Shown in pieces: positions 2,168 through 26,010 of a DNA stretch of 64,000 nt. How positions within the stretch are numbered: the stretch's first letter is position 1; each line of letters opens with the position of its first letter. The notes below the pieces were generated by a model, which saw only the letters and a program-made list of their open reading frames with translations, was not told the DNA's origin and ran no database searches. Source of the stretch: an uncultured Opitutales bacterium (lineage in GTDB: Bacteria; Verrucomicrobiota; Verrucomicrobiia; Opitutales; JABDGR01); assembly GCA_964562015.1 (NCBI GenBank), contig CAZLRH010000009.1, forward strand, positions 83,557-147,556. Reading direction: 5' to 3'. The translations under genes and the position numbers were made by a program.

Positions 2168-3067
2168 ATGAATAGCATGACCGGATTTGGGGCGGGGACG
2201 GCGGCGCTCGCGCTGGCGGGCGGGACGGCGCGCGAAGTGGCCGTGGAGGCTTCATCGGTGAATCGCAAAGGCCTTGAAATCGCGGTCTCGCTGCCGCGCG
2301 AGTGGAATGCCCATGAAGCGCCGCTGACCGAGCTGGCGCGCGCGCGCCTGCATCGCGGCCATGTGCGCCTGACGGTGAGCCTGCGTGAACCTGCCGCCCC
2401 GGGCGCCGCCCCCGCCACGCAGGCTTGGGATTTGGCGACCGTACGCGAAAGTTTTGAGCAGTTGCGCGTGTTGGCAGACCATTTGGACGTGCCCTTCGAG
2501 CCCGATGCCGCACTCCTTTTGCGCCTCGCCCTGGGCAGTCGCAAGGAAACGCCCCTACCTCCCGCCGACGACGCCTGGCCCGCGGTGCAAAAGGCCGCCG
2601 CCGCCGCACTCGGGCAATTAACCGCCCTGCGCAAACGCGAGGGCGAAACGTTGCGCGCGGATATGAGCGGCCGCCTCAAACTTCTGGCCACGTTGCGCGG
2701 GGAAATTGCGCCGCTCGCCCCAGCCTCGGTTGCGCGTTATCGCGACACTCTGCACGCGCGCCTGCGGCAAATCGGCCTGGAAGTTGATTTAAACGACGAG
2801 CGCATCTTGCGCGAAATCGCCCTTTTTGCCGACCGCTGCGACATCACCGAGGAACTCACGCGGCTCGCCAGCCACCTCACCGAATTTGAAAAAACGCTAG
2901 GCGAGGAAGGGTCCGTGGGCCGCAAGCTCGATTTCCTCTGCCAGGAAATTCATCGTGAAATCAACACCGTCGGCAGCAAGGCCCAGCACGTGGACATCAC
3001 CCGCCGCGTGCTCGAGGCCAAGAACGAACTCGAGCGCATCCGCGAGCAGGTGCAGAATGTGGAATGA
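2168..3067 (+). CDS. yicC: YicC/YloC family endoribonuclease
   Basis: MNSMTGFG start, E.xSVNRK motif, and C-terminal D(I)TEELTRLxSH, GRKLDFLxQExxRExNTxGSK, IREQVQNVE. Confidence 0.93.
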   Translation: MNSMTGFGAGTAALALAGGTAREVAVEASSVNRKGLEIAVSLPREWNAHEAPLTELARARLHRGHVRLTVSLREPAAPGAAPATQAWDLATVRESFEQLRVLADHLDVPFEPDAALLLRLALGSRKETPLPPADDAWPAVQKAAAAALGQLTALRKREGETLRADMSGRLKLLATLRGEIAPLAPASVARYRDTLHARLRQIGLEVDLNDERILREIALFADRCDITEELTRLASHLTEFEKTLGEEGSVGRKLDFLCQEIHREINTVGSKAQHVDITRRVLEAKNELERIREQVQNVE

Positions 3068-3092: not shown

Positions 3093-4604
3093 CTACAATT
3101 GCAGTTGGTCAAGGACTTCCTGAATTTGCCGTTTGGCGGCGGGATTGCCAATGATGATGAGTATGCGGCCGGTGTCGTTTTGATCGATCGTTAACATTTC
3201 AATCTGTTGCATGAGGCCGGAATCTTGCAACCCTGCGACCATCTTATCCGCACTACTGAAGGGAAAAGGAAAGCTCATGTATTGCAACGGCGGGGCGGAG
3301 GGGTCGGCGTCAATGCTGATGTTATTTCCCAGGAGGGCGAATTTGTACCCGAGCGGGCGAAGCACGACTTCATACACCGTTTTCCAATCCACGTGGTGAA
3401 GAGTAACGGACGTGAGGCCCGCCAGCGCCGGTGGAAAATCAACCGTGAGGTTCGCCGCGGCGGCGGTGTCGCGCAATACCGTGGGTATGTCGGCATTGGC
3501 ATAGTCCACCAAAGGAAATAGCAGCGGACGTGGTTGGGTGGGGCGGATATAAGCGCCCGGTGCCGTGGGGAGGCGGCCAGTCATGGAAGGCACGGGCGTA
3601 AAATTTCCAGTCGCTGGATCGAGGCGCGACCAAGGGATGGCGGTATTTCCCGGCGTAGTATCGGTCGTTGCAGATGCAGGAGATGACGTGGGTGGAGCGA
3701 TGCGGGTTGAGGTGCTTGCTGGAGCGTTTGCCGTTAAAGTTGACGGGACTGGTACGGGCGGCGGTGTCTGCGGGGTTGAATCTGAAGCCCCCACCGAAAC
3801 CGGCGGGCTAGGGGGCAGTTGCTGCTTGACCAAGAGCGGAGATGGAGGGCGAAAGATGAGAGTTATCCCGAGGGCGACCAAGGCCAGCACGGTCGCGATA
3901 ATGAGAGTGAGTTTGGAGGAAATCATTGAGGTGAGTGGAGAAAAGGTCAAAGGAGCCACGATGGCCGCCGGGGCCGCCATGGCGGTGGCCGAGATGGACG
4001 TCACCAAGCCGGAGGGCACTGTCGTTTTGGCTCCAACATCGAGCGAGGTGGCTAGCAGCGCAGTGGAAAGAGTGAGGCCGCGTCGGGAAAGATGTGCGCG
4101 CATTTTTTCGAGTGCGCGGGCCACTCGTTTCTGCGCCGCCGCCTCGCTCAAGGCCAGGGCGCGGCCAGTTTCCTGCAGACTGCGGCCGTCAAAGAAGCGC
4201 AATAAAAGGGCGTCCTGGTCCACGCGCTTGAGGCGGCCCAAGGCATCGTCGAGCAAAGGGGAGAGATTATCCCAGCGGGTGGCCTGATCGTTTGTTTGTT
4301 CGGCGAGATTCATGGCTTGGGTTTCCCGTTGGCGTCGGCGATGCTCGCCCCGTTGGAGGTGGAACACTTCGCGCTGGGTGGTCCGGTACAGCCAGCCCGG
4401 CAGCGTCTGGCAGCCGCGCAAGCGGGCGGCTTGGCACGAAAGTTGAATAAAGACATTTTGGGCCACGTCCTGGGCGGCGGATGGCTGTTGCAGCATCCGC
4501 AGCGCCGTCCCGTAGACCAGCGGCAAATGCCGGTGTACCAATTCCCTAAAGGCCGATTCCGATTTTTCCTCGGCGTATTTTCTCAATAATTCGGCGTCTT
4601 CCAT
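3093..4604 (-). CDS. ECF sigma-70 factor fused to a TM helix, Pro/Thr linker and STN + secretin-N-like periplasmic domains
   Basis: Sigma2 (DAELLRKY..AFRELVHRHLPLVYGTALR..AQDVAQNVF) and sigma4 (LLLRFFDGRSLQETG..AAQKRVARALEK). TM at about aa 232-250. C-terminus resembles STN (ADIPTVLRDTA..VTLHHVDWKTVYEVVLRPLGY..GNNISI) and a NolW-like domain (LIIIGNPAAKRQIQEVLDQL). Confidence 0.85.
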   Translation of the reverse strand: MEDAELLRKYAEEKSESAFRELVHRHLPLVYGTALRMLQQPSAAQDVAQNVFIQLSCQAARLRGCQTLPGWLYRTTQREVFHLQRGEHRRRQRETQAMNLAEQTNDQATRWDNLSPLLDDALGRLKRVDQDALLLRFFDGRSLQETGRALALSEAAAQKRVARALEKMRAHLSRRGLTLSTALLATSLDVGAKTTVPSGLVTSISATAMAAPAAIVAPLTFSPLTSMISSKLTLIIATVLALVALGITLIFRPPSPLLVKQQLPPSPPVSVGASDSTPQTPPPVPVPSTLTANAPASTSTRIAPPTSSPASATTDTTPGNTAIPWSRLDPATGNFTPVPSMTGRLPTAPGAYIRPTQPRPLLFPLVDYANADIPTVLRDTAAAANLTVDFPPALAGLTSVTLHHVDWKTVYEVVLRPLGYKFALLGNNISIDADPSAPPLQYMSFPFPFSSADKMVAGLQDSGLMQQIEMLTIDQNDTGRILIIIGNPAAKRQIQEVLDQLQL

Positions 4605-4611
4605 GGGGGCG

Positions 4612-4649
4612 TTTATTATAATAAGCCCGCCGCCCGCGGAAATAAGACA
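4612..4649 (-). promoter_or_regulatory. Putative ECF-type promoter of the 3093-4604 gene
   Basis: Coding strand TGTC-N15-GCGGG-CTTATTATAATAAA, 45 nt before the ATG. The same layout occurs before the other two ECF paralogs. Confidence 0.55.
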
Positions 4650-4699
4650 AAAATCTTCTTTATTCTGGAGATGAGGGATGCCGCCGGCGCGAAATCGTC

Positions 4700-4738
4700 A
4701 AAAAAAAAATCTGCCGAACCCAAACGGGTTCGGCAGAT
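4700..4738 (-). terminator. Rho-independent terminator after the 4768-6264 gene
   Basis: Perfect 13-bp stem ATCTGCCGAACCC-aaac-GGGTTCGGCAGAT next to a 10-A run (U-tract on the minus strand). Confidence 0.85.
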
Positions 4739-4767
4739 GAGGCCAAGTAAGGAACTCGGCGCGAGGG

Positions 4768-6264
4768 TTACGGCGTCTGGTCCGACGACCTGAAGGTCAC
4801 AATCTGCCCGGGGCCGCCTGGCGTGGGAAACGAGCCTGGAGTTGAGCCCGCCGGCAGGGTCTGCGTGGTGATGACGCCGTCTTTGTTCGTCGTCACCGTG
4901 ATGGTGCCATCGGGATTTTTCACGCTTTTGCTGCTGAACTTGCTGGTCGTGAAGACACCGCTCGCTGTGCCCGCCGGATTGGCCAGCATAATCGTCCCGC
5001 TGGGACCGTTGCTGACGGCGCTGCCGGACGAGAAAGTGCCGGGATTGCCACTGCTGCCGCTGATGACCACGGTGGCTCCGCCATTGCTGGAACTCGTGGT
5101 GAAGGTCCCCGAAGCGGGAACGTTGACCGTGCGCGTGGTGCTGACGCCATTTTCCGTTGTGGTGAGGGTTGTGGTTCCTTCCGCCTCTGTCTGGAGGCTT
5201 TGACTGGAAAAATCGAGGGTTCCCTCAGTCGAGGCAGGATTCAAAACGAGCACGCCCTCGGTGACCATGGTTGCAGTCCCGGAATAATCAGGGGAAGGAA
5301 CATAAGCGGAAGCCGTTTCTGTTGCTGAAACCGAAGCCTCGGTTGCGTCAGGGACATTATTGACCGCAGCGGTGACCGGCGCCGCGACTGGGGCCGCCAC
5401 CCGCGGGCCGGCCTGGCGAACAGCCGCAGATTCGGGTGCGGGGGACACCGAGGCGCGGGATTGGATGGCCGGCGGGAGGGCGCCGGATGTGGACGGTTGA
5501 TGCGGCCAAGCGTAGGCGGCAAAACCGGCGACCGCCAAAGTGGCGAGCGAAGCGAGGGCGATTTTTGAGGTAAACATGGATTTAAGGGAGGTTAGAGAAA
5601 GACTCGTGGCTGCGCCTGCGCCGCTCAGCGCCGTGGCGGAAACTTTGGCCGCCAGCCCGAACGGGGCCGGCACGGCGGCGTTGGTATCGAGCGTGGTGGC
5701 GAGCAGGGCCGTGGAAAGCGTGAGCCCCCGTTTCGTCAAAAATCCGCGCAATTTATCCAACGCGCGGGCGACCCGCTTTTGGGCGGTGTCGTCGCTGAGG
5801 CCAAGTTCACGGCCAATGCACTGAAAATCCTGTTGCTGCAAATAACGCAGCACGATGGCGTCGCGGTCCGTGGCATTGAGGCCGTTGAGCGCTTCATCGA
5901 GCACCGGCGCAATGTTTTCCCAGGCAGTGGCGCGGCCGGACTTTTCTTCGAGAGCGTTGATTTCCATAAAAATCCGGTCGCGGGAGCGCCGCCGTTGTTC
6001 CGTACGCACCGCCTTCGCTGCCGTGAAGCAGGTGTGCCGGTGCAGCCAGCCGCCCAAGATTAAGTCGGCAGGCAGGGATCCCGCCTTGCGCGCCAAATCG
6101 GTGAACACGATTTGCGTAACGTCTTGCGCGAGATGGGTGTCGCCGGCGACCAGCCGGCGGGCCGTGGCATGGACGAGCCCGACGTGACGCTCTACCAATT
6201 CCCGAAAGGCTTGGTCGGAGCCTTCACGGGCGTATTGGCGCAGAAGTTGGGTGTCGTCGTTCAT
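4768..6264 (-). CDS. ECF sigma-70 factor fused to a TM helix and a Ser/Thr/Gly-rich extracytoplasmic tail
   Basis: MNDDTQLLRQY..AFRELVERHVGLVHATARR..LAQDVTQIVF and sigma4 (RDAIVLRY..TAQKRVARALDKLR). TM at about aa 235-252. Start placed at ATG 6264 by alignment with the paralogs. Confidence 0.85.
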   Translation of the reverse strand: MNDDTQLLRQYAREGSDQAFRELVERHVGLVHATARRLVAGDTHLAQDVTQIVFTDLARKAGSLPADLILGGWLHRHTCFTAAKAVRTEQRRRSRDRIFMEINALEEKSGRATAWENIAPVLDEALNGLNATDRDAIVLRYLQQQDFQCIGRELGLSDDTAQKRVARALDKLRGFLTKRGLTLSTALLATTLDTNAAVPAPFGLAAKVSATALSGAGAATSLSLTSLKSMFTSKIALASLATLAVAGFAAYAWPHQPSTSGALPPAIQSRASVSPAPESAAVRQAGPRVAAPVAAPVTAAVNNVPDATEASVSATETASAYVPSPDYSGTATMVTEGVLVLNPASTEGTLDFSSQSLQTEAEGTTTLTTTENGVSTTRTVNVPASGTFTTSSSNGGATVVISGSSGNPGTFSSGSAVSNGPSGTIMLANPAGTASGVFTTSKFSSKSVKNPDGTITVTTNKDGVITTQTLPAGSTPGSFPTPGGPGQIVTFRSSDQTP

Positions 6265-6270
6265 CGGCTG

Positions 6271-6308
6271 GTTTATATAATAGAACCCGCCGCAAGGCGA
6301 TTCCGACA
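6271..6308 (-). promoter_or_regulatory. Putative ECF-type promoter of the 4768-6264 gene
   Basis: Coding strand TGTC-N14-GCGGG-TTCTATTATATAAA, 44 nt before the ATG. Confidence 0.55.
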
Positions 6309-6447
6309 AGAAATCGCCCCAAACCAGGGACGCCGCCGGCGGCGACCCTACGGTCCAAACGACATAATTTGTAGGCGCCGCTGGCGACGGCCCATGGTCA
6401 CGGCTTCTGTTTCAAAATATAAACCATCCCAGCCTTCCGAGTCAGGC

Positions 6448-7956
6448 TTATCCGCCCACGCCGCCGCGGCCACCACCACCGCCGCCGAAGCCGCCGCCGT
6501 TGCCCGTGCCGCCACGATTGGCGCCCGCCGCCGGTTGGGCTGGAGCCGCGCCTGCGCCAGCATTCGGATCCCACGGGGCCAGGCGGTTGGCATTATTGAC
6601 AAAACCCGCGCCCATGCGGTTGAGGCGGTTAAGGGGACGCGTGTTGGCCGGATCCAGATTGTTGACCCAATCTGAAATCGCCTGTTTTTCATCCGCGGAA
6701 ATGTTGGGGTTCGCCTGCACGAATTTAAGCCCGCTTTGCGGGTCGTTCGCGATTTGGCGCGCAATGACGGAATCAATGATGCGCCCGGTGAGATTGGGGT
6801 CGGAAACGTGGGACGTGGCCCACATCACTGCGGTTTCCGGGTCCACGCGCCCGGCGCTGGTGGCGAAATTCACGACGGCCGGATCAGTGGCGGGAGAGGC
6901 GGGCAGGGCGCCCAGAATTTGCGCGGCGCTATTGAGGTCGTAACGCGTCAACGTGCGAATGGAATTCGCCAGCGCCGTGCCGGGCTGGTCGGTGCCGTTT
7001 TGGAGCGAAGCTTGGTCGAACTGGACGGCCCAGGCCGCGGCGGCCATCGGGTCGTTGCGCGTCCACGCCGCGACGACCTGGTTGCCGAGTTGCGCGCGTT
7101 GGGCCGGGTCGGTCAGGGTGGCCACGTAGTTCGCCGCGTCTGTCGGCGAATTTTGGGCCCAGCGGTTGAGCAACTGGGTGGAGGCGGCGGTCTTGGCGTC
7201 GTCGGGCAGCGTGGAGAACAATTTCACGGCGTCCTCGAATTTGCCGTCATCGGCGAGCGCGTTCGCCACGGCCTGGTAACTCTGGCGCTGCAAATTGCGG
7301 TCCGCCAAGGTCGAGTTGCCAAAGCTGGCGACGATGTCCAGCGCGCCCTGCGGATCCGTCGCGGCCATGCCGCCGAGCGCGGCCCGGTAACGCGCATTGA
7401 TTTGCTGCGGCGGCAGCGCTTCTTTTTCCTGGCCCAGCCAGGCCAGGGCGGCCTTCGGGTCATCCTTGGCCCACGACTTCAAGGCCGTGGCTACGCCCGC
7501 CTCGCGGGCCGACGGGTTGGTGATGTTGCTATGGGCGAGGAGGAAAGTAGACGGCGCTTTTTCGGCCCAGGAGCTGACGAGGGCGGCGAACATGGCGTCG
7601 CGCTGCATCCCGGCCGGCATGTCTTGCAGCGATTGGATGAATTCGGCGTAGTCGTTCGGGTCCACGCTGTCCGCCCAGAGCTTCAGCAACGCCGGATCCA
7701 GCTTGTTCTTATTCGCCAGCATTTCCTGAAAGGTCGGCAGCTTGCCCACCAAGCCGATGGGCGAGCCATCCGCTCCCGGCGCGCCATTGCCGCCGATGCT
7801 CATGGTCGCGCCATGGTCGGTGGAAGACTTGCCGGGTTTGCCGGTGGCGACTTTGCCGGTTTCCGGCGCGTGGTGGGAGCCGGCCCAATAGGAAAGGACG
7901 CTGCTGGCGGCCCAGACGGCGGCGAAGCCGAGGTATTTGAGGGATTTCGAATTCAT
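6448..7956 (-). CDS. Membrane-anchored or secreted helical-repeat protein (W-x3-DP-xAAxxW repeats) with a Gly-rich C-terminus
   Basis: N-terminal hydrophobic segment (MNSKSLKYLGFAAVWAASSVLSYWAG) and about 9 repeats of ~33 aa (e.g. WAKDDPKAALAWL, WTRNDPMAAAAWA). Confidence 0.8.
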   Translation of the reverse strand: MNSKSLKYLGFAAVWAASSVLSYWAGSHHAPETGKVATGKPGKSSTDHGATMSIGGNGAPGADGSPIGLVGKLPTFQEMLANKNKLDPALLKLWADSVDPNDYAEFIQSLQDMPAGMQRDAMFAALVSSWAEKAPSTFLLAHSNITNPSAREAGVATALKSWAKDDPKAALAWLGQEKEALPPQQINARYRAALGGMAATDPQGALDIVASFGNSTLADRNLQRQSYQAVANALADDGKFEDAVKLFSTLPDDAKTAASTQLLNRWAQNSPTDAANYVATLTDPAQRAQLGNQVVAAWTRNDPMAAAAWAVQFDQASLQNGTDQPGTALANSIRTLTRYDLNSAAQILGALPASPATDPAVVNFATSAGRVDPETAVMWATSHVSDPNLTGRIIDSVIARQIANDPQSGLKFVQANPNISADEKQAISDWVNNLDPANTRPLNRLNRMGAGFVNNANRLAPWDPNAGAGAAPAQPAAGANRGGTGNGGGFGGGGGGRGGVGG

Positions 7957-8174
7957 GGGGTACGTGGGGATGCTGCGATGGACGAGACCGGGCAAAGAAC
8001 AAAACCGAGGTGCGGCGCAGGGTGACGCCGTCAGGGGAATCTAGGTGGTGGGCGATGGGGCTGTCAACCGGTCGTTTGTCGGCTAGAAACCGGGCGATTT
8101 CGTCTCAATAAAAAATAATGAAAGAATATTTTATCCTTGATAAAAGGTCTCACCTCCGGCTCGCTCTTTCGAAA

Positions 8175-9287
8175 ATGAGCTTTGTTTTTTGGCGTCGCCT
8201 ATTGCTCAACATTGCCCTCAGTGGAGGTGCGCTGGCCGCGCTCTCGCCTGGGGTTAGGGCAGTCGTTTCCTACACCCTGACGGATTTGGGGTCGTTGGAC
8301 AATTCCTCGAACCTCTATTCCAGTTTTGCTACTGGCATTAATGCGTCGGGCGAGGTGTCGGGTTATTCCTACACCTCGGTGAGTGCTGGAAGTCACGCCT
8401 TTCTCTATTCCGGCGGCGTGATGTCCGATATCGGCGGGGGGAATAGTGTCGCCAATGGCATCAACGATTCCGGTCAAGTCGTCGGCTACATCACGGGCAT
8501 AGATGGGTTTCATCATGCTTTTCTCTATTCCGCTGGCAATTTAACTGACCTCAGTCCGCAAGTCGGGGTCGACACGATCGCTTATGCCATCAACAACAGC
8601 GGCCAAGTCGTTGGCAAAGGCCCGACTTTTTCCAATTCCTTTTTTTATTCCGGCGGGGTCGGGACTCTCTTCAATACGCTGGGGGCCGCGCGCGCCCTTA
8701 ACGATTCTGGAAATTTCGCCGGCGGGGGCGCCAATTTTGCCTATGTGGTCAATAGTGGAATAATGACGAATTTCGGCACCCTGGCGGGCGGAGGGCCCGC
8801 CCATGGTTACGGCATGAATAATCAAGGCGACGTGGTGGGTGCTGCGGATTTCAGCTTTCCGAGCGCCTACGACTTGATCGTGTATCACAATGGGACGCTT
8901 TTGGATCTGGGCCGCGCTGCTCCCACGGCCGATACCTATGGTTATGATATAAATGCCACGGGCCAAATTGTCGGCGAGTACAGATACACTTCGATGAGCG
9001 GTTTGGTTGACCAAGGTTTCCTTTATGAGAATGGGTCGTTCACCGACATGGATAGCTTACCCATTATCAATCTTGGGACCTGGCACGACATTTTCGCGAC
9101 AGCCATCAATGACAACGGCCAGATCGCGGGCTGGGGTACGGACGGAACCGGACGGACCCATGCCCTCCTTATTTCGCCGGTGCCTGAACCGGCGGCGTTT
9201 GCCTTTGGGGTAACGCTGACGGCCGGGCTGGTTGCATTGAGCAGACGGTATTATTCTCGCGCGGTGACCCGGCGGACTAGTCGTTGA
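8175..9287 (+). CDS. PEP-CTERM surface protein with HAF-type extracellular repeats
   Basis: Signal peptide, repeats such as AxxINxSGxVxG..HAFLYSGGxMxD(L)G, and a C-terminal VPEP motif followed by a TM helix and an Arg-rich tail. Confidence 0.88.
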   Translation: MSFVFWRRLLLNIALSGGALAALSPGVRAVVSYTLTDLGSLDNSSNLYSSFATGINASGEVSGYSYTSVSAGSHAFLYSGGVMSDIGGGNSVANGINDSGQVVGYITGIDGFHHAFLYSAGNLTDLSPQVGVDTIAYAINNSGQVVGKGPTFSNSFFYSGGVGTLFNTLGAARALNDSGNFAGGGANFAYVVNSGIMTNFGTLAGGGPAHGYGMNNQGDVVGAADFSFPSAYDLIVYHNGTLLDLGRAAPTADTYGYDINATGQIVGEYRYTSMSGLVDQGFLYENGSFTDMDSLPIINLGTWHDIFATAINDNGQIAGWGTDGTGRTHALLISPVPEPAAFAFGVTLTAGLVALSRRYYSRAVTRRTSR

Positions 9288-9356
9288 TTTTAGGTGGACG
9301 CTGTTTCGCAAAGAATCTATTTTAAGGCTAGACGGTCCATAAACAGGAAACATGTC

Positions 9357-10346
9357 ATGCCGGCCTTGATTCGCAATGAACTCGTGGAGTCCCTGGTGGG
9401 CCGGCTGTTTGCGGCCTACCGCATCACCGACGTGGAGCAGGTGGCCGCGGCCATGGCCGCATTGATTGAGGGCCGCATCAAAAGCATTACCGCGCGCACG
9501 CCGTGGAATCGGCGCAAGGCCGCCGAACTAACGGACGTGGCGGACCGGTTTGTCCTCGCGCTGGACCAGCGCCTGGCGAAGGAAGGCCCAGCGCACCGCG
9601 CGCTCCTGCTGCCGCGGCGCAAGGCCTTGTCCGCGCAGCAATTTTACCTGAGCGAATGGGCCGCCGGCGGAAACTACGCGCAGGGTCGTTGGCTCGACGC
9701 CGGCCAGTGGGCCGCGCATTTCAGCACCGTGCGCATGACGGTGCCGTTGTTGCTGATCCTCGCCTTTTTTGTCGTGGTGGAATTGGGCGGTGGGCGCCTG
9801 AGGCCGGAATTTTTCTGGGCGGATGTGCTGCTCTGGCTGCTGGCGTGGGGGTTTATGGAAATGTATACATTTCAAACTTTCAAAATGGTTTTCCAGCAAC
9901 GCCGGTTTGACGCGCTGCTGCGGGGAGATCTCGCGCGCTTTGTGGAATGCCAGCGGCAGATTGCCTCTGAGGACGGACCGTGGTTCGCGCTGAATCGGGA
10001 ATTTCCCATCTGGTGCGTGCGCGGGCTCGCGGTGCTGGCCCTGTTGTTTCTATTGCTAAAGGGTGACCCGCTGAACGGGCTCGCTGCCAGCGAATCCGCG
10101 ACCTTGGCCGCCGCCCTGGCCGCCCAAGACACCACTTTGCAACGCCATGGTGAGGCGGTTGCTGAACTCACCGCCAAACTGGACGACCTCGCCGCTGATT
10201 TGCCGGCCGAGGCGGTGCCGGATGACGATTTCCCCGCCTACGATTTTGCAAGCTACGGCGTCGCAGTCCCGAACATGCGCGTTGTCGCTGGTGGCAGTTC
10301 GGGTGGGAGTTATACCATTGGACGTGTGACCGTGACCGTGCGGTAG
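9357..10346 (+). CDS. Hypothetical membrane protein (about 3 TM segments)
   Basis: Long ORF with hydrophobic stretches (VPLLLILAFFVVV, VLLWLLAWGFM, LAVLALLFLLL). No family recognised. Confidence 0.6.
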   Translation: MPALIRNELVESLVGRLFAAYRITDVEQVAAAMAALIEGRIKSITARTPWNRRKAAELTDVADRFVLALDQRLAKEGPAHRALLLPRRKALSAQQFYLSEWAAGGNYAQGRWLDAGQWAAHFSTVRMTVPLLLILAFFVVVELGGGRLRPEFFWADVLLWLLAWGFMEMYTFQTFKMVFQQRRFDALLRGDLARFVECQRQIASEDGPWFALNREFPIWCVRGLAVLALLFLLLKGDPLNGLAASESATLAAALAAQDTTLQRHGEAVAELTAKLDDLAADLPAEAVPDDDFPAYDFASYGVAVPNMRVVAGGSSGGSYTIGRVTVTVR

Positions 10347-10406
10347 GGTGGGCGCAAGGGTTCGTCCACGGATTGATTTTAGACCTAATCTAAATCGGCC
10401 AGCCCT

Positions 10407-12341
10407 TCACTGGCCGATATTCGCATGGCCCAAGATTTGTTTTTTTGCGTCGTCGGACAAACTCGTCTGATTCAGCCAGCTTGTCGCTGCCGTTGGATCA
10501 GTTCTCGTCCAATCGCGAATGACCCGGTCAATGGTGTTGGTCCGTGTCTGTTCATCGGTAAGAGACTCGGCCCAAGGCGCTGCCGCCGCTGGATTTATCG
10601 GGGACAGCACACTGACATAAGCTCTGACCGCGTTCTGTTGGGCAAAACTGGGCGGCAATGTTTTGAGCCATTCCTCAGCGGCGGCAGGGTCGGCATCCAC
10701 CCATTTGTGCATAACTCCCAGCGCGGGGCCAAATTGATTTTGGCCGGCATTGGGCAGCGTGGCGATAAAGCCCATCGCCTGGGTTGGTTCCATCACTGGG
10801 AGGATCCCGGTCATAGCCGCGGATTTGTCGGAGTCGTTTGGCAACGCATTGGCCCAATTAAACGCCGCCTGGGCGTCGGATTTGCTCAGAGTGGCACCAA
10901 GCGACATCAGTGACATCGTACGTTGGTCGCCCGCCGGCAGCGCAAGTGTTTGTTTAATCGCCGCATGGGGGTCCTTTTTCGCCCAGCTGGCCATGAGGGA
11001 GGCCAAAGTTACGGGCGACGCATCCGGCCCGGCTAATTGCACCGCAACTTCCGGGTTGGTCTGGGCCAAGATATCCAAGAATTGCGACATCATCTCGTCG
11101 CGAGCCGAGCCGTGTGGAAGCTGCTGCACCCAGGCCCAGGCTGTGCTTGGATCTTTTTGCGCCCATGCTTCAAGAATCTGGCGCACTGCGATTTGGCGGG
11201 CCCGGGTTCCTTCAATTGTTTGTGCATATGCAAGTGCGGCGGCCGGGTCTGTGCGCACCCAGCGGTCGAGGATTTCCCTCATCAACAAGTCGCGTTCGGA
11301 GCCGCCTTCATGGTCGGCGTAGGCCAGCGCCGCGGCCATGCTTTGATTATCCAGCTGGTCGAGGAATTGGTAGAAAGCCTGCTTCGATGCGTCCGAATAC
11401 GCGCCGCTTTTCATCTCCACAATGACTTCCGCCAGCGCCGCCTGAATTTCGTCGAGGTTGGATGCCTCGGCGACCGATGCACTTTGTCCCATGGATGCGG
11501 ATGGCGCCGACCGGGGCCCGAGCTTCTTGACGGTGGAATTCCGCTCGTCGAGCCGCGCCTGCAGTTGGGCAATCTCGCGGTTTTGGGAAACGATGAAGGC
11601 GGCGGCCGAGACGGCCACGGCGGCGACAAGGATGGTTTTGATTTTCATGGTCATAAAAAAGATTTTCCAAACGGCGTGCGCCAATCCGCCCGCGCTTGTC
11701 GAGCCGGCCAAGGAGGCGCCTGTAACCTTGGCCGTTAAACCGGCCGGCAAGGGCGTGGCAGCCTGAACGGTAATCGCTGTGGCCAGGAGAGCCCCCGTGG
11801 TCGTCACGCCCTGCCGGGCGAAATGCCGGCGCATTTTTTCCAAGGCGCGTTCAACTCGCTTGTTTACCGTATTTTCATCCAGATGGAGAATCGCGGCCAC
11901 TTCGCGGTAGCTTTTGCCTTGGAAAAAGCGCAAAAGCACGGCATCGCGATCAGTTTCTCCGAGTTGGCCCACCGCCTCATCCAGAACGGGCCGCAGTTGT
12001 TCCAAACTTATTTCCTGAACTGGGTTGGGTTCATGCATGGCGACAGCTTTTTGTTCACGCACCTGGCGGCGCCATTGGCTACGCAGCGTTTTATGGGAGA
12101 GATAACGCGTGCTGGTGTGCAGCCATCCCGCCAAAGTTTCATGCCCGGACAACACACGGGCCTTCCGTGCCAAGTCGGTGAACACTCCTTGCGCTACGTC
12201 TTCGGCCAGATGAGCGTCACCAGCCAACAGACGGAAGGCGGTGCTGTAGACCAGGCGCAGGTAGCGTTGCACCACTTCGGCAAAGGCGGCCTCGTCGCCG
12301 GTTTCGGCATACTCGCGCAAGAGCTCGTGGTCTGGAGTCAT
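10407..12341 (-). CDS. ECF sigma-70 factor fused to a TM helix and W-DP helical repeats
   Basis: MTPDHELLREY..AFAEVVQRYLRLVYSTAFR..LAEDVAQGVF and sigma4 (RDAVLLRFFQGKSYREVA..KRVERALEKMRR). TM at about aa 236-252, then about 9-10 W-x3-DP-xAAxxW repeats. Confidence 0.88.
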   Translation of the reverse strand: MTPDHELLREYAETGDEAAFAEVVQRYLRLVYSTAFRLLAGDAHLAEDVAQGVFTDLARKARVLSGHETLAGWLHTSTRYLSHKTLRSQWRRQVREQKAVAMHEPNPVQEISLEQLRPVLDEAVGQLGETDRDAVLLRFFQGKSYREVAAILHLDENTVNKRVERALEKMRRHFARQGVTTTGALLATAITVQAATPLPAGLTAKVTGASLAGSTSAGGLAHAVWKIFFMTMKIKTILVAAVAVSAAAFIVSQNREIAQLQARLDERNSTVKKLGPRSAPSASMGQSASVAEASNLDEIQAALAEVIVEMKSGAYSDASKQAFYQFLDQLDNQSMAAALAYADHEGGSERDLLMREILDRWVRTDPAAALAYAQTIEGTRARQIAVRQILEAWAQKDPSTAWAWVQQLPHGSARDEMMSQFLDILAQTNPEVAVQLAGPDASPVTLASLMASWAKKDPHAAIKQTLALPAGDQRTMSLMSLGATLSKSDAQAAFNWANALPNDSDKSAAMTGILPVMEPTQAMGFIATLPNAGQNQFGPALGVMHKWVDADPAAAEEWLKTLPPSFAQQNAVRAYVSVLSPINPAAAAPWAESLTDEQTRTNTIDRVIRDWTRTDPTAATSWLNQTSLSDDAKKQILGHANIGQ

Positions 12342-12350
12342 TTGGTGTTT

Positions 12351-12384
12351 TCATAGTAACACCCGCAGGCACGGAAAACTGACA
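12351..12384 (-). promoter_or_regulatory. Putative ECF-type promoter of the 10407-12341 gene
   Basis: Coding strand TGTC-N14-GCGGG-TGTTACTATGA, 43 nt before the ATG. Confidence 0.55.
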
Positions 12385-12701
12385 ATAAAGTTCAGGTTTG
12401 GATCGATAATCGCCGCACGGACCTGGACTACGGTGGTGCCGTCGTTTACGCCTGATGAAGCCCGCTGACTTCAACAAGGCGGGGATGGTCGTCGCTATCC
12501 ACTTGCTGAAATTTGCGGCTAAAAGGTGCTCCAACCCCGCCCTTAGGCCCGCCGAAAGATTGCAATTCCACGCTTGATGACCGCCGGGGGATGCCTCACT
12601 CTGGTCGGAAACCCGGAGCGATTCAGACCGAAGAGGGGGCATTTGTACTGCAACCCTGCCACTGAAGAGTGACGGCCCAGCGGCCCCCCAAAGCAGATTA
12701 C

Positions 12702-20976: not shown

Positions 20977-22887
20977 TTACTGATTCGCAATGTTCTGCGC
21001 GGTCTTCAGCAAGTCCGCGCGCAGGGATTCCGGAATCTGCGCCGACTGAATCGCGGCGATCGCGGCGGGCGCGTCTTTCTTGGCCCACTGCGTGGTCACC
21101 GCGCGCAGGGTCGTGGTGCGATTGGCGCTGTCGTTGATGGAGCCGGCCCAGTTGAAGGCCGAGGGCAAATCATTCGGGCCTTCGGTGGCGATGAGTTTTT
21201 GCACGGCGTTGTCGCGGCCCTCGCCCGCGGGCAACGTGTTAATCCATTCGGAAGCCGCGAGCGGATCCTGCTTGAGGTAACTGTCGGCGACCTTGGCGAT
21301 GGCGTCGGACTGAATTTTCGGGTCGGTCAAGCTGCCCAGCAGCGCCGCGGCCTGCGCCGGATCCTGGGCGCTCCACGTGCTGATGATGTTGCCGAGCGTG
21401 CGGTTGCGGTTGTCGCCGGCGGGCAAGTCGGCGGCGTAGTTCCAGGCCGCTTGCGGATCGACACTGGCCACGGCACTGATGGCGCCGCGCACCGCCGAGT
21501 CCTGCCCGGTGCCCGCGGGCAGCGCTTCCGCCCACGCGAGGGCGCCCTTGGGGTCGGCGTTGGCCCAATTGGTGGCAACCTGGCCGGTCAGTTTGCTGTA
21601 ATTGGGATCGTTCCCCATCGTTTGAATATAGGCGGCGGAACCGGCGGGATCGCTGGAGATCCAGGTGCCGAGCACATTTTGCATGGCGGCCTGGCGCACA
21701 GCGGCATTGTCGGACGGCAGGGATTGCGCCCAACTGAGCGCGGCTTGAATATCCTGACGGGCCCAGGCGCTGGCCAATTCCGGCACGCCCTTGTCGCGAA
21801 TGGCGGTGTCACTCATGTTCATGAGATAAGTGGCGGTGCCGGCGGGATCGACCTGGCTCATTTGCATCAACGCAGTGGTCATGGCCTTGTCGTGCGTCTG
21901 GCCGGTGGCCACCGTATCGATCCAGGCGAGCGTGGCGGCCGGGTCTTTTTGCGCCCAGGTTTGGGCGATGGTGCCGATCAAGCTGTCGCGGCGGTCGCCA
22001 TTGGGCAGGGTGCCCACATAAGCGGTGGCCGCCTGCGGATCCTGAGTGGCGAGCGAAGTCAAAACGCTACTCACCGCACTGTTGCGGGCGCTGGCGATGG
22101 GAAGATTGCCGGCCCAGGCGAGCGCAGCCTGCGGGTCTTCCTGCGCCCAGGCGCTGGCGACATTTTGCAGGGCCTGATTGCGGGCCTGGCTGGCCGGGAG
22201 GTCGAGCGCGGCGGCGGCGGCGGCCGTGGAGTCCTGTTTGGCCCAGGCGGAGAAGACACTGCCATAAAGCTGGGCCGACTGCTGGCCCACGGGCAATTTA
22301 CGCACGGTGTCGAGCGCACCCGTCGGGTCTTTCATGGCCATGTTGGACAGCACGTTTTGCTGGATGGCGCTGCGTATGCCTGCGTTTTCAATTTTGTCGA
22401 GGCTCGCGAGTGCCGCGTTCGGATCCTTGGCCGACCAGGAATCAAAAACCAGGTAAAGGTCGGTGGTGCGTTCGTTGGCATTGGGTTGTCCTTTGGCCCA
22501 ATCCAGCGCGGCCGCCGGATCCGCGTCGGCCCAGCGCGCGGCGATGATGGCTTTGGCGAGCTGGTTGTCCGAGGTCGCGGGCATTTTGGCGAGCGAGTCG
22601 AGCAGCGAGTGGGCGCCCGCGGGGTCGAGATTGCTGGCAAAATCGAGCAAATCCCGATAGCGGGCGACGATACCGGGCGCCGTCAGGATTTTGGTCAGCT
22701 TGGATTGCTGGGAAGCGACGGAGCCGGAAGCCGTGGTTTTAGCGGTGGCCTTTTCCGCCGCGCCGGCCGGGCCGTGGCTCTGGGCCGCAGCGAGTTCCTC
22801 GCCCAAGCGGGAATTTTGACGATACTGCCAGCCGATGACGGCGAGGGCGGCGATGATGAGCGCAGTGAGCAGGGAATTTGATTTCAT
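20977..22887 (-). CDS. Membrane-anchored W-DP helical-repeat protein (about 17 repeats)
   Basis: N-terminal TM (LLTALIIAALAVIGWQY) followed by ~33-aa repeats such as WADADPAAALDWA, WAQEDPQAALAWA, WANADPKGALAWA. Confidence 0.85.
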   Translation of the reverse strand: MKSNSLLTALIIAALAVIGWQYRQNSRLGEELAAAQSHGPAGAAEKATAKTTASGSVASQQSKLTKILTAPGIVARYRDLLDFASNLDPAGAHSLLDSLAKMPATSDNQLAKAIIAARWADADPAAALDWAKGQPNANERTTDLYLVFDSWSAKDPNAALASLDKIENAGIRSAIQQNVLSNMAMKDPTGALDTVRKLPVGQQSAQLYGSVFSAWAKQDSTAAAAAALDLPASQARNQALQNVASAWAQEDPQAALAWAGNLPIASARNSAVSSVLTSLATQDPQAATAYVGTLPNGDRRDSLIGTIAQTWAQKDPAATLAWIDTVATGQTHDKAMTTALMQMSQVDPAGTATYLMNMSDTAIRDKGVPELASAWARQDIQAALSWAQSLPSDNAAVRQAAMQNVLGTWISSDPAGSAAYIQTMGNDPNYSKLTGQVATNWANADPKGALAWAEALPAGTGQDSAVRGAISAVASVDPQAAWNYAADLPAGDNRNRTLGNIISTWSAQDPAQAAALLGSLTDPKIQSDAIAKVADSYLKQDPLAASEWINTLPAGEGRDNAVQKLIATEGPNDLPSAFNWAGSINDSANRTTTLRAVTTQWAKKDAPAAIAAIQSAQIPESLRADLLKTAQNIANQ

Positions 22888-24239: not shown

Positions 24240-25916
24240 TCAGTTCTTTGCGCCCGCGCGGCGGCCTTTCCACGCCTGCCACAGGGGCCACAGCACGAAC
24301 AGCATCGGCAGCCAGCAAAGCACGAGGAACCAGCGCGAGCCGGCCAAGCCATCCTGCGCCACTTTGAAAAACGTCCGCCCTTGAATAAATGCTTTGGCGG
24401 CTTCGTCATTGGCATGGAGCGCGGAGGCCGCGCCCCCGAGCGCGAATTGTTTCGCGACCGCCGCTCCGCCGCAGGCCGCCTCCCACGCCAGGGCGCAACC
24501 GCCAAACGCAAAGTTGCCCACGGCCACTCCACCCATCGCCCACCAGCCGGCGGCCACGCCGCCGCCCGCCCAAATTCCCAGCGCGGCCCCGCCAACGGCC
24601 AGCAAGCCAAAGGCCGCGCCGCCAAAGCTAATCAACCCCACGGTCATTCCACCGAAACTTAACGGTGCGATCGCCACGCCGCCTGCAGCGCACAATCCTC
24701 CAATGGCGAAATCTCCGCCCGCAATCCAGCCGACCGCCGGGCGCAACTTTTCCTCGTCCCGCCGGCCGGCGCGGATATGCACCAGAGGCAAACCCAGAAA
24801 ACTCCAAGCACTGCGGTATTCTTTGACCGGCCAGAAATCGAAACGCACTTTGCTCGGTTCGACGGGTGTGGGTCCCACATTTTGTTCCGCTCGCAATTGC
24901 CGCAATCGTTGATTGGAACGCAGCGCGAACGGGACCAGCAGCGCCACATACGCGGCCCAAATTCCCGCAAACCCCAGCACCGTCAGCAACGGATTAACCG
25001 CCCACAAATCTTCGAAGAAAATACTCCAAAGGGCGGTCAAGACCACGACCACGGCCACCAGCGCCACGATGGTCCAGGCATTTTTCTTGATCATTTTTTT
25101 CTCTTCGGCGGAGCGCGCGAACTTGAGTTGCACACTGACGCCGACCCACCCGCCCACGATTCCCAGCACCGGGCCCAGCACCGTGGCCGCGAGTCCCGCC
25201 CAGCCCAGGCCGCCGGCCATCGCTCCGCCCTTGGCCATGCCGGCGCCCATGGCGCCAATTTTTCCCGACACAGCCAGCATCGGCAGCGCGGCCTGTACGC
25301 TGAGCGTAAAAGCAGTCCCCGGTCCGCTGCGACCCAGTGCCGTTTCCACAAAGGCGAGCATGCGCTCCTGCAACATTTTCCGCCCGCGGGACAGGCGCTG
25401 CATGACCGCGTCCTCGCTTAGTTCCAAGGCTTCAGCTACGCGTGCCACCGACTGTTCGCCGCGATAATACAACACCAGGGGCTCGCGATAGAGTTCCGGC
25501 AGTTGCCCGAGTTCGCGCCAGAGCAGGGCGGATTCCTCGCGGCTGATGGCTTGGGCCGCGGGCGGTGGTTCCGACGCGGGCAGATTTTCTGCGGCCTCCA
25601 GCGTTGCGGCGGCATGCGACGGCTCGCGTCCCAACTGCCGCCGGTCTTGGTTAATAGTGTGGCGCGCAATGCCGCACAACCAGGAGCGAAGTTTGGCGGG
25701 CTCGCGCAGTTCGCCCAGGTGCTGCCAGGCCGCGATGAATGTCTTCTGCGCCAGGTCTTCGCTTTGGCTTACGTTGCCGGTGGCGCTGTAAGCCAGGGCG
25801 CAAACGAGCGCCTGGTAGCGCGCGACGATTTGCCCGAAGGCCTCGCGCTGGCCTTCGAGGCTTTGGGCCACGAGCGCGGCGTCTGGGGCGGGTGCGATGG
25901 ATTCAGTGGTTGGCAT
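24240..25916 (-). CDS. ECF sigma-70 factor fused to a polytopic membrane domain with Gly-rich hydrophobic repeats
   Basis: DAALVAQSLEGQREAFGQIVARYQ..SEDLAQKTF..LRSWLCGIARH; LPELYREPLVLYY..QRLSRGRKML; then several TMs and EYRS..FLGLPLVHI..GWIAGGD..GG repeats. Start ATG 25916. Confidence 0.85.
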   Translation of the reverse strand: MPTTESIAPAPDAALVAQSLEGQREAFGQIVARYQALVCALAYSATGNVSQSEDLAQKTFIAAWQHLGELREPAKLRSWLCGIARHTINQDRRQLGREPSHAAATLEAAENLPASEPPPAAQAISREESALLWRELGQLPELYREPLVLYYRGEQSVARVAEALELSEDAVMQRLSRGRKMLQERMLAFVETALGRSGPGTAFTLSVQAALPMLAVSGKIGAMGAGMAKGGAMAGGLGWAGLAATVLGPVLGIVGGWVGVSVQLKFARSAEEKKMIKKNAWTIVALVAVVVVLTALWSIFFEDLWAVNPLLTVLGFAGIWAAYVALLVPFALRSNQRLRQLRAEQNVGPTPVEPSKVRFDFWPVKEYRSAWSFLGLPLVHIRAGRRDEEKLRPAVGWIAGGDFAIGGLCAAGGVAIAPLSFGGMTVGLISFGGAAFGLLAVGGAALGIWAGGGVAAGWWAMGGVAVGNFAFGGCALAWEAACGGAAVAKQFALGGAASALHANDEAAKAFIQGRTFFKVAQDGLAGSRWFLVLCWLPMLFVLWPLWQAWKGRRAGAKN

Positions 25917-26010
25917 GTCACCCCTTAAGTGGCGCAAACGGACGCCAACCTGACCGGAAATTTTGCGCCTGCCGATTCGGCTGCAAATCCGCGGCGAAGT
26001 TCGCCCGCAT

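Follow-up and report, generated by a model that had tools for sequence, protein, structure and literature searches.

Three ECF sigma factors beside yicC in an uncultured Opitutales bacterium belong to a family with predicted membrane anchors and swapped periplasmic tails

How does a bacterium come to encode, in one block of genes, three sigma factors that resemble each other up to a membrane-spanning segment and have nothing in common beyond it? The question is raised by a 64-kb stretch of contig CAZLRH010000009.1 from an uncultured Opitutales bacterium (genome size 4.43 Mb), hereafter termed the window, where three genes on the minus strand, which we name E1, E2 and E3, encode fusions of an extracytoplasmic function (ECF) sigma factor with a transmembrane (TM) helix and a C-terminal tail. 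An initial annotation of this locus had described a constant sigma half combined with swapped sensors and had proposed a modular, diversifying array of surface-sensing one-component sigma factors, generated by recombination at the boundary preceding the TM helix. The modular character of these proteins stands at the level of the family, where many tails are found on one type of head, whereas the local diversifying array does not. By analogy with characterized systems, we consider it reasonably probable that the proteins act as single-polypeptide signal transducers, in which a tethered sigma factor would be freed by regulated proteolysis in response to exchangeable periplasmic inputs.

E1, E2 and E3 each match Sigma70_r2 (PF04542) and Sigma70_r4_2 (PF08281) and score 69–77 bits with TIGR02937 (cut-off 42.9). 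They are thus of the ECF (group 4) sigma-70 type, with a sigma2 and a sigma4 domain and no other sigma regions found, and none of the curated ECF subfamily models of NCBIfam reaches its cut-off on any of them. The proteins can be aligned to about residue 250, including the motif KRVxRALEKxR...RGxTxSxALLATxL...PxGL and a single predicted TM helix. Past this helix they share nothing, so that the paralogy, the common motif and the complete divergence into STN/secretin-N, Ser/Thr-rich and W-DP tails are all borne out by domain matches and alignments. To call the sigma half constant is an overstatement with respect to its sequence, as the heads are 41–45% identical in pairwise comparison; at the DNA level, E1 matches neither E2 nor E3 and the similarity between E2 and E3 is confined to 84 nucleotides at 75%. 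The shared layout starts with a sigma core extending to about residue 175 and continues with a conserved linker of two helices, a pre-TM motif rich in Lys and in most cases with a methionine, and the TM helix; beyond it, a periplasmic spacer, either Pro/Ser/Thr-rich or coiled-coil, leads to the variable domain.

A hidden Markov model (HMM) built from the three heads and run over the genome identifies 14 paralogues with scores of 257–426 bits, while all other ECF sigma factors of the genome remain below 60 bits. The resemblance of the heads is thus well outside what chance would produce, and the 14 paralogues constitute a discrete family. A single hydropathy peak at about residues 227–268 is found in all 14. 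The window contains a fourth ECF fusion (24240–26024, minus strand, 594 residues), which belongs to another ECF lineage (it scores only 53 bits against the head model of the family) and carries a long C-terminal extension without Pfam match. Since Lys residues precede the TM helix and the tails are of exported type (secretin, serpin, propeller), the proteins are predicted to place their N-terminus inside and their C-terminus outside. No separate anti-sigma gene adjoins E1, E2 or E3 in the list of open reading frames (ORFs) and the domain scans of their neighbours. Judged from sequence, each of the three is a one-component protein, which combines a cytoplasmic sigma factor, a TM helix and an extracytoplasmic part in one polypeptide and has no separate anti-sigma gene.

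The segment connecting the sigma core with the membrane comprises about 40–55 residues and is predicted to form two helices. In an AlphaFold 2 (AF2) model of the E1 head, which reaches a mean predicted local distance difference test (pLDDT) score of 81.6 and a predicted template modelling score of 0.73, residues 215–231 are flexible, with pLDDT values below 50. This model superposes best on ECF sigma factors bound to their anti-sigma factors (SigW/RsiW, AlgU/MucA and CnrH/CnrY), with a root-mean-square deviation (rmsd) of 7–9 Å, and fits sigma factors bound to RNA polymerase far worse (rmsd about 27 Å). As far as can be told from the model, the superposition fits a linker that would lock sigma2 and sigma4 together, topologically in the manner of the two-helix CnrY.

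For a broader view of the family we collected 138 relatives, all of which match the entire 250-position head model, linker and TM helix included. Genomes of the same bacterial family carry between 2 and 37 copies, often in tandem arrays, and other families of the order have mostly none (E≤1e-20). Across the Verrucomicrobiota the spread is patchy: in a phylum-wide sample of 251 genomes from 123 genera, the complete head was found in 22 genomes and 17 genera, among them complete genomes with at least 10 copies. In a careful maximum-likelihood tree of the heads, which was also used for the approximately unbiased (AU) tests, E1, E2 and E3 fall into three separate and well-supported clades, and a tree in which they are constrained to group is worse by 166 log-likelihood units (AU p=4.6e-42). 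Their nearest paralogues are located on other contigs. E3 and the other W-DP fusion of the genome are sisters in the head tree, which fits vertical descent.

The tails differ in how much they reveal of their origin. The E1 tail aligns with the secretin encoded in the same genome (C1:232809-234722) over 145 residues at 30% identity (E=2e-17). The aligned part comprises the last 140 residues of E1, which correspond end to end to the N0(STN) and N1(Secretin_N) domains at residues 148–287 of the secretin, a protein that carries PF21305, PF07660, PF03958 and PF00263. By this similarity the E1 tail is homologous to N0 and N1 of a bona fide secretin, where Pfam alone detects only Secretin_N with a weak score (E=0.056). 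The secretin barrel PF00263 has no match in E1, which stops after N1. A single-sequence AF2 model of the tail is poor (pLDDT 50), and its Foldseek matches, with secretin N0-N1 entries among them, are not significant. When 1.84 billion representative proteins were searched exhaustively with HMMER, 154 relatives of the E1 tail emerged. Its nearest relatives elsewhere are the C-terminal sensor domains of Peptidase_M56 proteins: BlaR1-type sensors of this kind account for 5 of the 10 best matches, including the best one, STN or N0-type domains are present in all 10, and two of the M56 sensors also contain TonB_C.

The Ser/Thr/Gly-rich E2 tail has no match to Pfam or to any other family. In E3, a short coiled coil is followed by five W-x(1–4)-[DN]P (W-DP) motifs, which match about 40 W-DP proteins of the genome, and full-length relatives of E3 in sister genera are 36–40% identical over about 625 residues. 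The W-DP proteins, mostly signal-anchored and 480–1180 residues long, have no covering Pfam family; one of them is encoded at window positions 20977–22887 (minus strand). The stand-alone W-DP protein located between the fusions shows 22% identity to the E3 tail and falls into another subfamily, with five closer paralogues elsewhere; on the basis of this identity and the separate subfamily, a capture of the E3 tail from the adjoining gene was ruled out. The idea that W-DP genes are general neighbours of the family was dropped, as it rested on two independent loci.

Tails of the other paralogues include a serpin (PF00079, 3e-100), an RCC1-like propeller (1e-42) and small beta-rich domains, and those of the collected relatives DUF3738, CarboxypepD_reg, POTRA, HEAT, RCC1, PDZ and TPR. 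The serpin fusion is encoded at C7:96414-98840 and the RCC1-like beta-propeller fusion at C6:188747-191392. Two further fusions (C15:62117-64501 and C2:9340-13446) adjoin small secreted stand-alone paralogues of their own tails (E=1e-9 and 7e-6, respectively), which suggests either that the tails were captured locally or that the sensor imitates the products under its control. The domains STN/N0 and Secretin_N, and in homologues of the head also DUF3738 and CarboxypepD_reg, are held in common with M56 sensors, and this shared sequence repertoire supports the view of the tails as true input domains. We can speculate that the input of E1 is a partner of secretin N0 domains.

The distribution of tails on the head tree points to repeated exchange. 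Tail classes change 40 times on a tree obtained with a quick method, so that part of the excess over the minimum of 19 expected for full congruence stems from poor resolution; with shuffled labels, 62–73 changes are counted. A coiled-coil tail with the motif ANGDP (49% identity over 51 residues, E=6e-16) is found on heads of two clades, and monophyly of these heads is rejected (AU p=1e-4). In a metagenomic group, heads share about 95% identity up to the end of the TM helix and continue into unrelated tails, which places the break just after the membrane and not, as had been assumed for the window, before it. On sequence grounds, tail swapping is thus real at the level of the family and old in this window.

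No trace of recent exchange is seen among the three window genes, whose third-codon-position identity stays at background along the whole alignment, the head-tail junction included. Gene conversion among the paralogues of the genome was considered and rejected, with a longest exact match of 44 nucleotides in a pair on C2 and none for the window genes. Together with the three deep clades and the position of the recent breaks elsewhere, these sequence comparisons do not support a cluster made or diversified by local recombination. Elsewhere, a metagenomic contig (L093:1467-12469) contains seven family members in tandem on the same strand, whose third-position identity is about 0.45 in the sigma domain and reaches 0.81 (amino-acid identity 0.90) in a segment of 60–90 nucleotides ahead of the TM helix that encodes STLTLIKGALKIMAWTKAKT. 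At the nucleotide level, this segment contains AAAGGAG-N11-ATG, a Shine-Dalgarno-like motif ahead of the pre-TM methionine. Gene conversion at the junction could account for this conservation, as could selective pressure to keep an internal start of translation. The homogenisation of the segment indicates that a junction-centred process may exist in the family, one that is not visible in the window.

A second feature that accompanies the head is located upstream of the genes. Before 12 of the 14 paralogues, and before homologues in other genera, we find an element of about 45 nucleotides composed of TTTTGTCnGnTTT, about 16 GC-rich nucleotides and TTATTATAnAAAC, which ends 3–8 nucleotides before the ATG. 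With a position weight matrix (PWM) built from 11 sites, the 11 family sites score 34–49 bits and the best non-family site of the genome 21.9 bits; as there is no comparable site outside the family, the element is peculiar to genes of the family and moves together with the head. A canonical sigma-70 promoter was not found before E1, E2 or E3. If the TATAAT-like box of the element is a -10 element, its position very close to the ATG implies nearly leaderless transcripts. Between the GC-rich arm and the bases immediately preceding the ATG there is weak complementarity, and cognate arms around the AT box pair better than non-cognate ones (p=0.0015). A search for RNA structure in the element gave no RNAalifold consensus, no real Rfam match and weak single-sequence z-scores (mean -0.66). 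An autoregulated ECF promoter, a variant of a housekeeping promoter and a translation element are all candidates for its role.

These observations can be combined in a model of signal transduction. At rest, the sigma factor would be kept at the membrane, with the linker probably docked on sigma2 and sigma4. A signal acting on the periplasmic domain, be it the binding of a ligand or partner or the loss of a partner, would expose the protein to site-1 cleavage, upon which an RseP-type site-2 protease would cut within the TM helix and free the sigma factor for RNA polymerase. On an evolutionary time scale, the conserved unit is the head with its own 45-nucleotide element; its tails have repeatedly been replaced, and they come from a stock of periplasmic domains that also supplies BlaR1-type M56 sensors. 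A precedent is provided by IutY from Pseudomonas putida, a sigma/anti-sigma hybrid that is activated by Prc and subsequent RseP cleavage, which frees the sigma factor, and activation by proteolysis has likewise been predicted for the groups ECF48, ECF52 and ECF53 (PMC8999054).

Several points weigh against this model. Cleavage, release or a regulon has been observed for no member of the family. The genome does encode an RseP-like M50 protease (C1:64666-66306), but RseP is nearly universal and its presence tells little. AlphaFold tends to draw ECF sigma factors compact anyway. A class I anti-sigma domain is a four-helix bundle of about 80–90 residues that binds sigma2 and sigma4; the linker is predicted to form only two helices, its alignments lack both the zinc-binding motif HxxxCxxC and any conserved Cys or His, and a profile of the linker searched against PDB chains has no match at E≤10 and thus none to a solved anti-sigma domain. 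Assignment of the linker to a known anti-sigma domain was ruled out by this search, and on sequence and model it is not a class I domain, as it is too short, has two helices and lacks a match in the PDB. No target promoter could be defined; the conserved upstream element precedes genes of the family and no others. Finally, the Ser/Thr-rich tail of E2 and very short tails such as the 62 residues of C7_180424 do not resemble ligand-binding domains.

Compatible with proteolytic release, and the alternative that survives best, is the idea that each gene gives rise to two products, the full-length protein and a TM sensor lacking the sigma factor that is translated from the ATG ahead of the TM helix, the threshold being set by the short form as a competitor for signal, partner or protease. 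We regard this as possible but doubtful. It draws on a methionine located within 12 alignment columns before the TM helix in 87% of the 138 members, compared to 5–20% in neighbouring windows, and on the composition of the preceding 20 nucleotides, which are 62% A+T as opposed to 39% at the remaining internal ATGs of these genes (p=2e-14). In the L093/L094 lineage, AAGGAG is found 11 nucleotides upstream and is conserved at synonymous sites, and stand-alone tail paralogues start alike, with M-x-x-K-x-K followed by a TM helix. Conversely, the A/T richness may stem from the Lys, Phe, Ile, Met and Asn residues of a membrane-interface motif, Shine-Dalgarno-like motifs are not enriched before this ATG across the family (27% compared to 20%, p=0.22), and the methionine could be structural. 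Other possible readings of this residue are a start of translation within the gene and a remnant left by the initial fusion. A tentative extension, which we would not rate as likely, sees in the head-tail junction both a translation element, yielding a sigma-fused and a sigma-less sensor, and a homology tract for the exchange of heads and tails in arrays such as L093. If true, a built-in competitor isoform and a cassette-exchange site would be combined in one family of sigma factors.

Opposed to release by proteolysis is a sigma factor that is active while tethered, in the manner of ToxR or CadC, and is never set free, in which case the linker would be a mere spacer and a conformational change or oligomerisation would admit RNA polymerase. 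The roughly 55 residues of the linker and the flexible region around residues 215–231 could provide the necessary reach, and coiled coils following the TM helix in many members suggest dimerisation. However, we know of no sigma factor that works while anchored to the membrane, and the conserved sequence of the linker is not needed in a mere spacer. With the characterized hybrid IutY requiring cleavage (PMC8999054), we judge activity in the tethered state to be quite unlikely.

Very unlikely, in our view, is an origin of the tails as accidental products of read-through or insertion without sensory role, with regulation exerted elsewhere. Such a 'fortuitous insertion' was proposed in a study of Planctomycetes (Pinto and da Fonseca 2020, PMC7671368), and it would accommodate the short or low-complexity tails of some members and an E1 protein for which we found no full-length homologue among 5.8 billion (5.8e9) proteins. 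It is at odds with the presence of intact folded domains such as the serpin, the RCC1-like propeller and the N0 and N1 domains, with the persistence of E3-type fusions across genera, with the use of the same domains as sensor ends of M56 transducers and with a conserved TM helix that puts all tails in the periplasm. Highly improbable, finally, is a locally diversifying cassette array in which recombination ahead of the TM helix shuffles sensors among neighbouring sigma genes, since the tandem arrays common in relatives, the homogenised segment in L093, with the look of gene conversion or a recombination junction, and the resemblance of the pre-TM methionine to the start of stand-alone anchored proteins are opposed by the depth of the three head clades, the lack of DNA similarity and of a third-position peak in the window, the distance of the adjoining W-DP gene from the E3 tail, the conserved synteny of this gene and E2 in relatives, and the clearest recent cases, which keep their identity through the TM helix and break after it.

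Release of a tethered sigma factor, which we favour, places the family next to several known systems. Like the proteins described here, IutY (FecI/FecR type, ECF243) consists of one polypeptide in which an N-terminal ECF sigma factor is followed by a single TM helix and a C-terminal portion located in the periplasm. Unlike IutY, E1, E2 and E3 contain no FecR domain (PF04773, E≤0.01), no FecI-type NCBIfam match above cut-off and no evident TonB-dependent transducer as partner, and their family displays at least 12 types of tail domains and 14 or more copies per genome. The actinobacterial groups ECF48, ECF52 and ECF53 also fuse an ECF sigma factor to a membrane-spanning extension, and in ECF52 (SCO4117) a periplasmic Pro-rich stretch precedes a binding domain (PMC8999054), an arrangement of spacer and domain as in E1. 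Their anti-sigma segment is of the zinc-finger (ZAS) type, whereas the linker described here has two helices and no Cys/His motif; they belong to another phylum, and the verrucomicrobial tail repertoire is far more diverse. In Planctomycetes, members of the same PVC superphylum, ECF sigma factors are proposed to have duplicated their sigma2-sigma4 part and acquired new C-terminal extensions (PMC7671368). The likeness lies in the architecture and in the pattern of swapping, with a conserved sigma2/sigma4 part, non-homologous extensions carrying many Pfam domains and disagreeing head and tail trees; the conserved unit found here additionally includes the linker, the pre-TM Met motif, the TM helix and the 45-nucleotide element, and the three window genes are old instead of recent duplicates.

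Two further comparisons concern parts of the protein. Peptidase_M56 sensors of the BlaR1/MecR1 type in Verrucomicrobia and Acidobacteria share periplasmic C-terminal modules (STN/N0, Secretin_N, DUF3738 and CarboxypepD_reg) with the family. The likeness is limited to this input end, as these sensors employ a membrane metalloprotease for output, which is directed against a BlaI-type repressor. The linker recalls class II anti-sigma factors such as CnrY, the partner of CnrH, and NepR, in which a short two-helix cytoplasmic segment, in CnrY located beside the TM helix, joins sigma2 and sigma4; the E1 head has some of its better structural matches in CnrH/CnrY and RpoE/NepR, a similarity that rests on a predicted model. 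CnrY and NepR are separate proteins and show no sequence similarity to the linker. In outline, membrane-sensor-fused ECF sigma factors with evolutionarily swapped extensions are thus a known kind. Our literature search found no paper on this verrucomicrobial family, and Verrucomicrobia are not mentioned in the main text of the ECF classification 2.0 (Casas-Pastor 2021); as homologues exist in complete genomes of the order Opitutales, the family is probably already contained in the global ECF classification.

The features of the locus are compiled in Table 1. As initially annotated, the block starts directly after yicC and a stand-alone W-DP protein is located between the fusions. Related loci, designated by L numbers, were gathered with yicC as anchor, and in L011–L015 the gene is syntenic with its own upstream gene and forms the conserved left border of the block. 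In L011, whose YicC is 70% identical, yicC is followed by an ECF fusion of the C9_35219 type, an E2-like ECF fusion and a W-DP homologue; the E2-like protein is 43% identical to E2 across both full lengths, with a head at 64% identity and a weakly similar tail. In L012, the order is yicC, an ORF of 626 residues, a W-DP homologue and three ECF fusions. The W-DP homologues of L011 and L012 are 41–42% identical to the stand-alone W-DP protein of the window. This synteny identifies E2 and the W-DP gene as an old core beside yicC, with other slots varying by lineage. A full-length counterpart of E3 is found in neither of these two loci. Judged by sequence, E1 is a lineage-specific addition and an orphan combination without full-length homologue found; the closest head (P0002) is 62% identical and carries a different tail. 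A displacement of gmk by the block was considered and rejected, as a Gmk-like ORF follows yicC in 1 of 55 verrucomicrobial loci in which yicC was located (by a crude P-loop scan), and the sequences give no sign that gmk was ever next to yicC in this lineage.

The strong terminator between E2 and E1 implies that these adjacent sigma genes are separate transcription units. The ORF of E2 formally reaches a TTG at 6309, and the family alignment and the upstream element identify the ATG at 6264 as its start. In the protein encoded at 8118–9287, HAF repeats are clear and a C-terminus with VPEP, a hydrophobic stretch and RRYYSRAVTRRTSR is visible, while PEP-CTERM models give no match at E≤0.01. The membrane protein encoded downstream has no match in Pfam and NCBIfam scans.

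Table 1. Features of the yicC-adjacent block, in window coordinates.
Feature	Position	Strand	Basis
yicC (YicC/YloC endoribonuclease)	2168–3067	+	PF03755, PF08340; TIGR00255 185 bits
E1: ECF sigma, linker, TM, Pro/Ser/Thr spacer, secretin N0(STN)+N1; 503 aa	3093–4604	-	Domain scans, alignment, hydropathy
E1 periplasmic N0(STN)+N1(Secretin_N)-like domains, aa 362–501	3102–3521	-	Similarity to N0+N1 of the genome's secretin
E1 pre-TM Met227 (SMISSK) and predicted TM helix, aa 232–250	3855–3926	-	Hydropathy peak 2.74
Pre-TM Met	3924–3926 (E1 Met227), ~5575–5577 (E2 Met230), ~11646–11654 (E3 Met230/232)	-	Alignment
E1 conserved linker, aa 176–215, two predicted helices, RGxTxSxALLATxL...PxGL	3960–4079	-	Alignments; AF2 helices 181–192 and 200–210, pLDDT 83–89
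E1 sigma2-sigma4 core, aa 1–175	4080–4604	-	Sigma70_r2 aa 22–88, Sigma70_r4_2 aa 118–168; AF2 pLDDT mostly >88
E1 upstream element (TTTTGTC..TTTCC-GC-rich-TTATTATAATAAAC), end 6 nt before ATG	4611–4655	-	PWM 41 bits
Intrinsic terminator after E2, 13-bp stem then T10	4709–4738	-	Stem and T run; also spurious Xoo8 partial match
E2: ECF sigma, linker, TM, Ser/Thr/Gly-rich tail; 498 aa	4768–6264	-	Domain scans, alignment
E2 upstream element	6270–6314	-	PWM 37 bits
Stand-alone signal-anchored W-DP repeat protein	6448–7995	-	Likely start ATG at 7956
HAF-repeat protein, putative PEP-CTERM-type C-terminus (VPEP, TM, Arg-rich)	8118–9287	+	TIGR02913 E=1.4e-31; C-terminal motif read from translation
Membrane protein, 350 aa	9294–10346	+	ORF
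E3: ECF sigma, linker, TM, short coiled coil, W-DP repeat solenoid; 644 aa	10407–12341	-	Domain scans, alignment
E3 upstream element	12346–12390	-	PWM 45 bits

As both the architecture and the swapping of tails have precedents, our results leave the general picture of ECF biology unchanged. Among the leads that they provide are the start codon ahead of the TM helix, the family-specific upstream element, the orphan fusion of a sigma factor with secretin N0 and N1 domains and the sensors held in common with BlaR1-type proteins. The sharing of domains with these sensors supports the concept of portable input modules, to whose catalogue the family contributes secretin N0-N1, serpin, RCC1 propeller, W-DP solenoid and DUF3738 domains. 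The family also offers a compact regulatory module of linker and TM helix that is unlike known anti-sigma domains, and its natural chimeras of heads and tails may be useful for studying how signals are transferred to a sigma factor. Verrucomicrobia are abundant in soil, water and gut, and to our knowledge almost nothing is known of how they sense their surroundings. With 14 such sigma factors in this genome and 2–37 in its relatives, each tied to its own tail, the family is probably one of the main pathways by which the phylum transmits signals from the envelope and the surface.

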